This document shows positions 1 to 221 of a stretch of DNA of 221 nt, one piece after another. The DNA lies in the sequence record M10695.1. One strand, written 5' to 3'. The notes beneath the pieces were generated by a model. That model had not been told where the DNA came from, did not search any database, and worked only from the letters and a program-made list of their open reading frames with translations. The translations under genes were made by a program, and so were the position numbers. Source of the DNA: a phage. The first letter of the stretch is position 1. Every line of letters begins with the position of its first letter.

Positions 1-7
1 GGGGAAC

Positions 8-20
8 CCCCCTTCGGGGG
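8..20 (+). other. 5'-proximal stem-loop: C8-C12 pairs with G16-G20 around loop TTC, or equivalently C9-C12/G17-G20 closing a C(UUCG)G tetraloop
   Basis: Direct complementarity CCCCC/GGGGG. Positions 12-17 read CTTCGG, the classic UUCG tetraloop context. An alternative pairing G1-G4 with C9-C12 is possible, so the 5' GGGG may be paired or free. Confidence 0.7.
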
Positions 21-25
21 TCACC

Positions 26-45
26 TCGCGCAGCGGGCTGCGCGA
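26..45 (+). other. Stem-loop: 8 bp stem (26-33 TCGCGCAG with 38-45 CTGCGCGA), loop CGGG (34-37)
   Basis: Perfect inverted repeat read from the sequence; 27-34 CGCGCAGC is the exact reverse complement of 37-44 GCTGCGCG. Confidence 0.75.
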
Positions 46-49
46 AGGG

Positions 50-72
50 GCCACGCTGCGAAGCAGCGTGGC
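50..72 (+). other. Stem-loop: 10 bp stem (50-59 GCCACGCTGC with 63-72 GCAGCGTGGC), triloop GAA (60-62)
   Basis: Perfect inverted repeat; the longest and most GC-rich stem in the window. Confidence 0.8.
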
Positions 73-77
73 GGTTC

Positions 78-100
78 TCGTGCGTTACCGAAACGCACGA
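78..100 (+). other. Stem-loop: 9 bp stem (78-86 TCGTGCGTT with 92-100 AACGCACGA), loop ACCGA (87-91)
   Basis: Perfect inverted repeat read from the sequence. Confidence 0.8.
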
Positions 101-106
101 AGGTCG

Positions 107-123
107 CGCCTCTTCACGAGGCG
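107..123 (+). other. Stem-loop: 6 bp stem (107-112 CGCCTC with 118-123 GAGGCG), loop TTCAC (113-117); possible extra G106-U124 wobble pair
   Basis: Perfect inverted repeat read from the sequence. Confidence 0.7.
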
Positions 124-134
124 TCACCTGGGAG

Positions 135-148
135 AGCGCGAAAGCGCT
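135..148 (+). other. Stem-loop: 5 bp stem (135-139 AGCGC with 144-148 GCGCT) closed by a GAAA (GNRA-type) tetraloop at 140-143
   Basis: Perfect inverted repeat with a GAAA loop. GGG 130-132 could also pair with CCC 151-153 across a small internal loop, but that competes with the next hairpin. Confidence 0.7.
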
Positions 149-151
149 AGC

Positions 152-167
152 CCGTGACTCGTCACGG
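152..167 (+). other. Stem-loop: 6 bp stem (152-157 CCGTGA with 162-167 TCACGG), loop CTCG (158-161)
   Basis: Perfect inverted repeat; 152-158 CCGTGAC is the exact reverse complement of 161-167 GTCACGG. Confidence 0.7.
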
Positions 168-179
168 TCGAACTCCCGT

Positions 180-199
180 ACGAGGTGCCCGCACCTCGT
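180..199 (+). other. Stem-loop: 8 bp stem (180-187 ACGAGGTG with 192-199 CACCTCGT), loop CCCG (188-191)
   Basis: Perfect inverted repeat read from the sequence. Confidence 0.75.
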
Positions 200-215
200 C
201 CCCCCTTCCGGGGGG
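200..215 (+). other. 3'-proximal stem-loop: 6 bp stem (C200-C205 with G210-G215), loop TTCC (206-209)
   Basis: Direct complementarity CCCCCC/GGGGGG. It is followed by an unpaired 3' tail, TCCCCA. Confidence 0.7.
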
Positions 216-221
216 TCCCCA
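216..221 (+). promoter_or_regulatory. Single-stranded 3'-terminal TCCCCA tail: candidate replicase initiation site (C-cluster) plus a terminal A
   Basis: The tail lies outside every local hairpin found. Qbeta replicase templates are known to end in a 3' C-cluster with an extra non-templated A, and to start with 5' G residues; this window does both. Confidence 0.55.

Follow-up and report, generated by a model that had tools for sequence, protein, structure and literature searches.

Same-sense terminal hairpins beside the G/C clusters of MDV-1 RNA as a probable source of its end-to-end complementarity

The window analyzed here, that is, the whole 221-nt stretch of sequence record M10695.1, is, judged by its sequence, the minus-sense form of MDV-1 (midivariant) RNA, and it includes the 3' A that is added without a template. 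Its two ends are quasi-complementary, so that the two strands begin almost alike. The explanation that we favor, with a probability of about 0.72, is that both ends of this MDV-1 minus strand combine the G/C-cluster signals of Qbeta replicase with a hairpin of the Qbeta 5' type, and that panhandle and local hairpins are closely balanced at these ends, with the hairpins forming first. The end-to-end complementarity would then be largely a by-product of placing one self-complementary hairpin at both ends.

Identification of the molecule is based on ~130 nt of exact primer matches and on homology to Qbeta. Exact matches were obtained for seven published primers of MDV-1 constructs, four of them on the window strand (CGTCACGGTCGAACTCCC, CGAAAGCGCTAGCCCGTGAC, TCGAACTCCCGTACGAGGTGCC and TACCGAAACGCACGAAGG) and three on its complement (ACGGGCTAGCGCTTTC, AGTCACGGGCTAGCGCTTTC and CGTACGGGAGTTCGACCGTG). 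Together with the homology to Qbeta, these matches bear out the original prediction, which had been made from the letters alone and had guessed at a template of Qbeta replicase. As for polarity, Usui et al. swapped a loop "at position 63-64 of MDV-1" between two flanking primers. Since the four bases that separate these primers are positions 63-66 of the window's reverse complement, it is the complement that corresponds to the conventional MDV-1 plus strand. Among the templates of Qbeta replicase, MDV-1 is a classic one (Mills, Kramer and Spiegelman 1973, cited by PMC6913131 and PMC10013734), and PMC4652763 and PMC6913131 report that this enzyme amplifies it exponentially in vitro.

The window has a G+C content of 70% over its 221 nt and reads GGGGAACCCCCCUUCGGGGGU... 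at the 5' end and ...GUCCCCCCUUCCGGGGGGUCCCCA at the 3' end. It contains no ORF longer than 29 aa; coding potential was rejected, the sole ORFs being of 25 and 29 aa with GTG starts, and the window is regarded as non-coding. In Rfam, searched with a permissive E-value, no family reached its gathering threshold. The best match, PhotoRC-I, was discarded since its score of 18.6 bits fell short of the threshold (45) and it covered only the C/UUCG/G hairpin at 5-21. No counterpart or natural source of MDV-1 was found among plasmids by megablast, the interior of the window had no match in 5,426 E. coli genomes by blastn, and exact-pattern scans of viral, metagenome and genome contig collections returned no match to the window, as would be expected of an RNA that is known from replicase reactions alone. 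Full-text matches to terminal and internal MDV-1 strings were mostly unrelated TNF-promoter primers, and one was a toy sequence. The CGGUAACG variant is common to the window, to the MDV-1-derived parasitic RNAs of the Ichihashi laboratory lineage and to a primer for that laboratory's "parasite-alpha" RNA; classical MDV-1 presumably has a G at the variant position. Window positions 86-103 are identical to the "Parasite-alpha13 forward" primer, TACCGAAACGCACGAAGG, listed in the supplement of a 2020 eLife paper on host-parasite RNA evolution.

The window strand is homologous to the Qbeta plus strand both at its 5' end and internally. The terminal block, at 1-34, was aligned by blastn at 88% with positions 1-34 of the Qbeta record (four records), with 30 of 34 bases identical. 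The internal block, at 95-142, is homologous to Qbeta plus-strand positions 4091-4138 (39/48 identities) and is situated 79-80 nt from the 3' end in the window RNA and in Qbeta alike. Having no 11-mer in common with the phage, it was missed by blastn (word size 11, phages) and recovered by a Smith-Waterman alignment, whose score of 51 compares with 28 for the best of 300 shuffles. It is absent in M11, MX1, SP, NL95 and MS2. This block lies outside the terminal feature, and it fixes both the identity and the polarity of the molecule. An internal replicase-binding region of MDV-1, reportedly described by Nishihara, Mills and Kramer (1983), corresponds to window 95-142. In Qbeta, 4091-4138 runs from the last part of the replicase gene into the 3' untranslated region. 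For the remainder of the window, 143-221, a relationship with the 3' tail of the Qbeta plus strand was rejected as marginal (P=0.03). A direct repeat at 17-35 and 120-138 (74%; GGGGTCACCTCGCGCAGCG and GGCGTCACCTGGGAGAGCG) connects the stretch that directly follows the 5' hairpin with the internal block resembling Qbeta.

The termini of the window can be read as two layers, the first of which consists of the GGGG...CCCC(A) clusters. Their role as start and finish signals of the replicase comes from the literature, and the clusters themselves are directly visible in the sequence. Qbeta replicase starts de novo by placing GTP opposite the penultimate C, which is the first templating base, and it adds a terminal 3' A without a template, which is not copied; both Qbeta strands have a 5'-GG and a CCA-3' end (PMC4200798). 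In the window strand, the 5' G-cluster GGGG (1-4) complements the templating 3' CCCC of the other strand and can pair with C217-220. The latter, within the 3' tail UCCCC (216-220), form the templating C-cluster for GTP initiation, and they are followed by the 3'-terminal A (221), which is of the untemplated, uncopied kind (PMC4200798) and is unpaired in every predicted fold. Both strands thus start with GG(G), the complement reading GGGG once the untemplated A is dropped, and both end with CC(C), as CCCCA at 217-221 in the window strand and as CCCC in the complement. With GTP starting opposite the 3' cytidines, every product begins with GGG and ends in the CCC copied from the template's 5' GGG, to which one untemplated A is added. 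Since autocatalysis needs both strands as templates, both have to start with GGG and end with CCCA.

Known template requirements include a 3'-terminal oligo(C) and terminal stems, and MDV-1 has been called a legitimate template meeting all requirements (PMC6913131). The original prediction that both polarities need a 5' G-cluster and a 3' C-cluster is therefore in line with the literature (PMC4200798, PMC6913131). Its stronger wording, that a replicase copying both polarities "would need exactly this," holds in general for the G/C clusters only and not for the 20-nt similarity, since the two strand starts have only GGG in common in Qbeta, M11, MX1, SP, NL95, MNV-11, RQT157 and RQ11+12, and GGGTGG in MS2. 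MDV-1 is an outlier in the ~16 nt of similarity that extend beyond the clusters, and these ~16 nt are no general requirement.

Base-by-base comparison confirmed that the three pairings first proposed between the ends are exact, namely, G1-4 with C217-220, C7-12 with G210-215 and G16-20 with C201-205, the 3' C-run being in fact six residues long (200-205, instead of 201-205). In addition, A5 can pair with U216, A6 forms a one-base bulge, and U13-U14-C15 lies opposite U206-U207-C208-C209 in a 3x4 internal loop. The end-to-end complementarity ends at 20/201. An independent repeat search returned the inverted pair 2-12/210-220 at 91%. That both strands begin alike is true once the complement of A221 is dropped, which gives GGGGACCCCCCGGAAGGGGGG for the reverse complement and GGGGAACCCCCCTTCGGGGGT for the window strand, but the full reverse complement has a T in front. 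The strand starts show 15 identities over 21 positions when compared ungapped, and their global score is 9; with the 3' A ignored, the pattern GGGGA(A)CCCCCC-loop-GGGGG is found on both. The two ends are complementary once more at 19-28/181-190, where the register is shifted (90%; GGTCACCTCG and CGAGGTGCCC). The 7-mer CACCUCG occurs twice: at 22-28 it forms the 5' arm of the second hairpin from the 5' end, and at 192-198 it is the 3' arm of the last hairpin but one before the 3' end.

How surprising this resemblance is depends on what is held constant. The similarity of the strand starts had a P of 1e-4 against mononucleotide shuffles of the whole molecule, 4e-4 against dinucleotide shuffles, and 5e-5 against shuffles inside the two 21-nt ends only. 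When homopolymer runs were kept intact and only their order was permuted, P was 0.066, and it was 0.15 when the terminal G4 and C4 were fixed as well. Base composition thus falls far short of explaining the similarity, but the idea that the similarity also exceeds what G/C-run composition alone would give is not much supported, the run-preserving null giving P=0.07-0.15. The reverse complement of a C6-loop-G6 element is again C6-loop'-G6, so that two homopolymer hairpins of the same polarity are automatically complementary to each other. The nonrandom signal is the presence of two same-polarity C-run/G-run hairpins at both ends and not their mutual complementarity.

These hairpins would form the second layer, the anatomy suggesting that the same short element, C6-pyrimidine loop-G5-6, adjoins each cluster. 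The 5'-terminal G:C hairpin (6-21, window strand) pairs A6 with U21 and C7-G20 to C11-G16 around the loop C12-U13-U14-C15, and it is homologous to the 5'-terminal hairpin of the Qbeta plus strand. The 3'-terminal G:C hairpin (200-215, same strand) pairs C200-G215 to C205-G210 around the loop U206-U207-C208-C209. Folded in isolation, the 5' end reaches -11.2 kcal/mol and the 3' end -14.0 kcal/mol, and terminal hairpins overall fold at -11 to -17 kcal/mol. The mismatch between the loops is not incidental, the loops being same-sense: they read UUC and UUCC on the window strand (hence GAA and GGAA on the complement), and when the two hairpins are aligned with one another, the direct match (score 14) beats the inverted one (score 10). 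The direct repeats between the ends comprise 7-20 and 200-213 at 93%, and 16-25 and 211-220 at 90%.

Because the reverse complement of a hairpin stem is the stem itself, repeating one hairpin at the two ends makes these ends complementary and all four strand ends alike. Each strand would thereby present a 3' end of the form hairpin-U-CCCC(A), imitating the 3' end of the Qbeta minus strand. Indeed, C5-6-loop-G6-U(N)-CCCC is the 3' end of the window strand, of its complement, of the Qbeta minus strand and of MNV-11. Natural phage genomes keep a 5' GC hairpin (PMC3561173), which we found in the Qubevirus genomes examined (n=5) and in MS2, the SP record excepted. When the eight aligned terminal hairpins were analyzed with RNAalifold, the C:G core was invariant with zero compensatory changes, so covariation neither supports nor rejects the hairpin. 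In the SP record (X07489), the first 26 nt, GGGGGTAGGGGGGATAAAGGGGGCCT, form no stable 5' hairpin (-1.4 kcal/mol, versus -16 to -18 kcal/mol in the other five). The corresponding 5' sequence in NL95, a close relative of SP, is GGGGGTAGGCCCCATAAGGGGCCT, and the 5' end of the SP record may be an old sequencing error.

Structure prediction presents the whole molecule as a chain of ~8 G:C-rich hairpins. The minimum free energies of the two strands are -142.1 and -143.9 kcal/mol (z=-8.4 and -8.45), and none of 200 dinucleotide shuffles folded as well, for either strand. Template structure that limits the formation of template-product duplexes is the subject of PMC4652763. The panhandle, which had been thought possible in principle, is the predicted minimum-free-energy fold of both strands, and its supposed competition with the local hairpins is seen in constrained ensembles, where the two are predicted to be near-isoenergetic. 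The difference is 0.7-0.8 kcal/mol in favor of the panhandle (0.3-2.1 kcal/mol across dangle and temperature settings), which lies within the error of the energy model. The extended panhandle accounts for 0.57 of the predicted ensemble and the local hairpins for 0.18, and a direct path between the two states (findpath) has a barrier of 18.7-19.4 kcal/mol. In a perfect copy-back variant made in silico, the panhandle was favored by 17.5 kcal/mol. In the actual molecule, the helix between the ends is broken by the A6 bulge and by the same-sense loops, which is why the panhandle is better by only 0.3-2 kcal/mol and not ~17. When the polarity of the 3' hairpin was flipped in silico, the flipped G-run found other partners, with P(200:215)=0.38.

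Minimum-free-energy folds of a growing chain contain the 5' hairpin from 20-22 nt until ~218 nt and the 3' hairpin at 215 nt. Because the 5' hairpin comes first in synthesis and the barrier is ~19 kcal/mol, fresh strands should be trapped in local hairpins, which the model predicts to be closed by a short G1-5/U216-C220 terminal helix. The G1-4/C217-220 part of this helix, with A5-U216, is present in both conformers (P=0.996-0.998, or 0.986-0.998 across settings), and opening the last three nucleotides (3' CCA) is predicted to take ~7 kcal/mol. In these models, it thus appears that the local hairpins would not keep the 3' tail accessible, as had been proposed, since G1-4/C217-220 persists whichever conformer is formed and freeing the CCA has that cost. 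Other templates have a predicted 5'-3' closing helix that is weaker and more variable (P from 0.04 to 0.87). The 3' cytidines of MDV-1 are reportedly chemically accessible, which conflicts with their predicted pairing. A paired 3' CCCC, as modeled, would also be at odds with the free 3' end needed at initiation, when a single-stranded CCA is in the active site (PMC4200798).

The predicted closing helix fits the proposal of cooperating termini in genuine templates. In another reading, functional circularity, end-to-end pairing itself was selected, the terminal helix holding the termini together for a closed, processive complex and its extension strengthening that helix. We regard this as unlikely. 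The panhandle is the best predicted fold of both strands and ranks first at equilibrium (0.57 versus 0.18), and G1-4/C217-220 has a P of at least 0.986 under all settings tried; a closed conformation is specific to legitimate templates (PMC5762825), and cooperation of the 5' and 3' termini via a terminal helix has been proposed (Ugarov and Chetverin 2008, as cited in PMC6847885), so that pairing of the ends may itself have a function. However, other efficient templates share only 3 nt at their strand starts and pair their ends with probabilities of just 0.04-0.87, and the loops of the window are same-sense and noncomplementary, with a direct match that beats the inverted one. Moreover, the site of initiation would be hidden in a long terminal duplex, and the stable long hairpin of SV-11 is inactive. 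Selection for the extended panhandle itself is thus less probable than the reading based on hairpins.

The near-balance of the two conformers also allows a more speculative view, to which we give a rather small chance, that the same-sense near-copies are kept in order to tune a near-degenerate two-state system of open hairpins versus closed panhandle. The two states in question are at most ~2 kcal/mol apart, with a barrier of ~19 kcal/mol between them and a terminal helix of 4-5 bp common to both. If this were true, the replicase could switch between an initiation-competent form and a closed, "circular" form, which would explain in structural terms the proposed functional circularity of legitimate templates.

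An origin by copy-back (snap-back), in which the replicase turned on the nascent strand and copied its 5' end, the loops diverging later, seems improbable. It would account for both ends resembling the 5' hairpin of Qbeta (reverse-complemented, the 3' end agrees with Qbeta 2-20 at 16 of 19 positions) and for the lack of relationship between window 143-221 and the Qbeta 3' tail. SV-11 is said to be a recombinant of MNV-11 plus and minus strands, which implies that the enzyme does make such molecules. A copy-back event nevertheless predicts exact complementarity, loops included, whereas UUC and UUCC would need three to four loop substitutions in addition to indels, and the complementarity stops at 20/201 to resume only in the shifted register of 19-28/181-190. 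The ends of the window are not an exact inverted terminal repeat, given their same-sense loops, one bulged A and the stop at 20/201. Finally, chance arising from a G/C-rich, run-rich composition is highly improbable, since despite the run-preserving permutations (P=0.066, or 0.15 with terminal G4/C4 fixed), P does not exceed 1e-4 when mononucleotides or the ends alone are shuffled and is 4e-4 for dinucleotide shuffles, the runs form stable hairpins at both ends, and the same motif recurs in Qbeta and MNV-11, which are independent templates.

Returning to the reading that we prefer, cluster signals plus one Qbeta-5'-type hairpin at both ends, the essentials of this terminal design are already known for MDV-1 itself from work of the 1970s-2010s. 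Our additions are modest: the complementarity comes mostly from one hairpin placed at both ends, and panhandle and hairpins are predicted to differ little in energy. The main interpretation originally put forward is right for the G/C clusters, overstated for the 20 nt and, in the models, wrong on the accessibility of the 3' tail. The design shows how a primer-independent RNA replicase keeps a template and its complement equally copyable. On this equal copyability rest exponential RNA amplification, evolution experiments of the Spiegelman type and the present-day artificial RNA replicators that are based on MDV-1.

When the window is set beside known systems, the closest is MDV-1, with which it shares a length of 221-222 nt, the primer sites, the insertion-site loop at ~63-64 of the complementary strand, the Qbeta-homologous 5' and internal blocks, the GGGG...CCCCA ends and a very stable fold of both strands. 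No difference was detected over the parts compared, that is, the primers and these features. In Qbeta, the 3' end of the minus strand is the complement of the genomic 5' hairpin and the end from which the replicase copies most readily. It is built like that of the window, with C5-6, a short loop, G6, a U and a terminal CCCC. Unlike MDV-1, which has the hairpin at both ends, Qbeta has it at one end only: the 3' end of its plus strand (...CUCUCCUCCCA) is unrelated to the hairpin, and its two strand starts share just GGG. The 3' end of the window's complement is matched almost exactly by that of MNV-11 (...GGUGACCCCCCGAAGGGGGGUGCCCC), but MNV-11 too differs from the window in having the hairpin at a single end.

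SV-11 offers a parallel for the folding. Its metastable hairpin form is the active template, and its stable long hairpin blocks the termini and is inactive (bioRxiv 10.1101/2020.07.10.196972). As in the window, a stable end-to-end long hairpin competes with a form made of local hairpins. In contrast to the window, in which the forms are at most ~2 kcal/mol apart, the stable form of SV-11 is better by ~32 kcal/mol (-95.9 versus -63.6 kcal/mol). The panhandles of segmented negative-strand viruses and copy-back defective interfering RNAs resemble the window in that inverted termini give both polarities the same polymerase-recognized 3' end. Their termini are true inverted repeats whose mutual pairing is the promoter, whereas the ends of the window fold on themselves, have same-sense loops and 4-5 terminal pairs common to the conformers, and serve another polymerase family.
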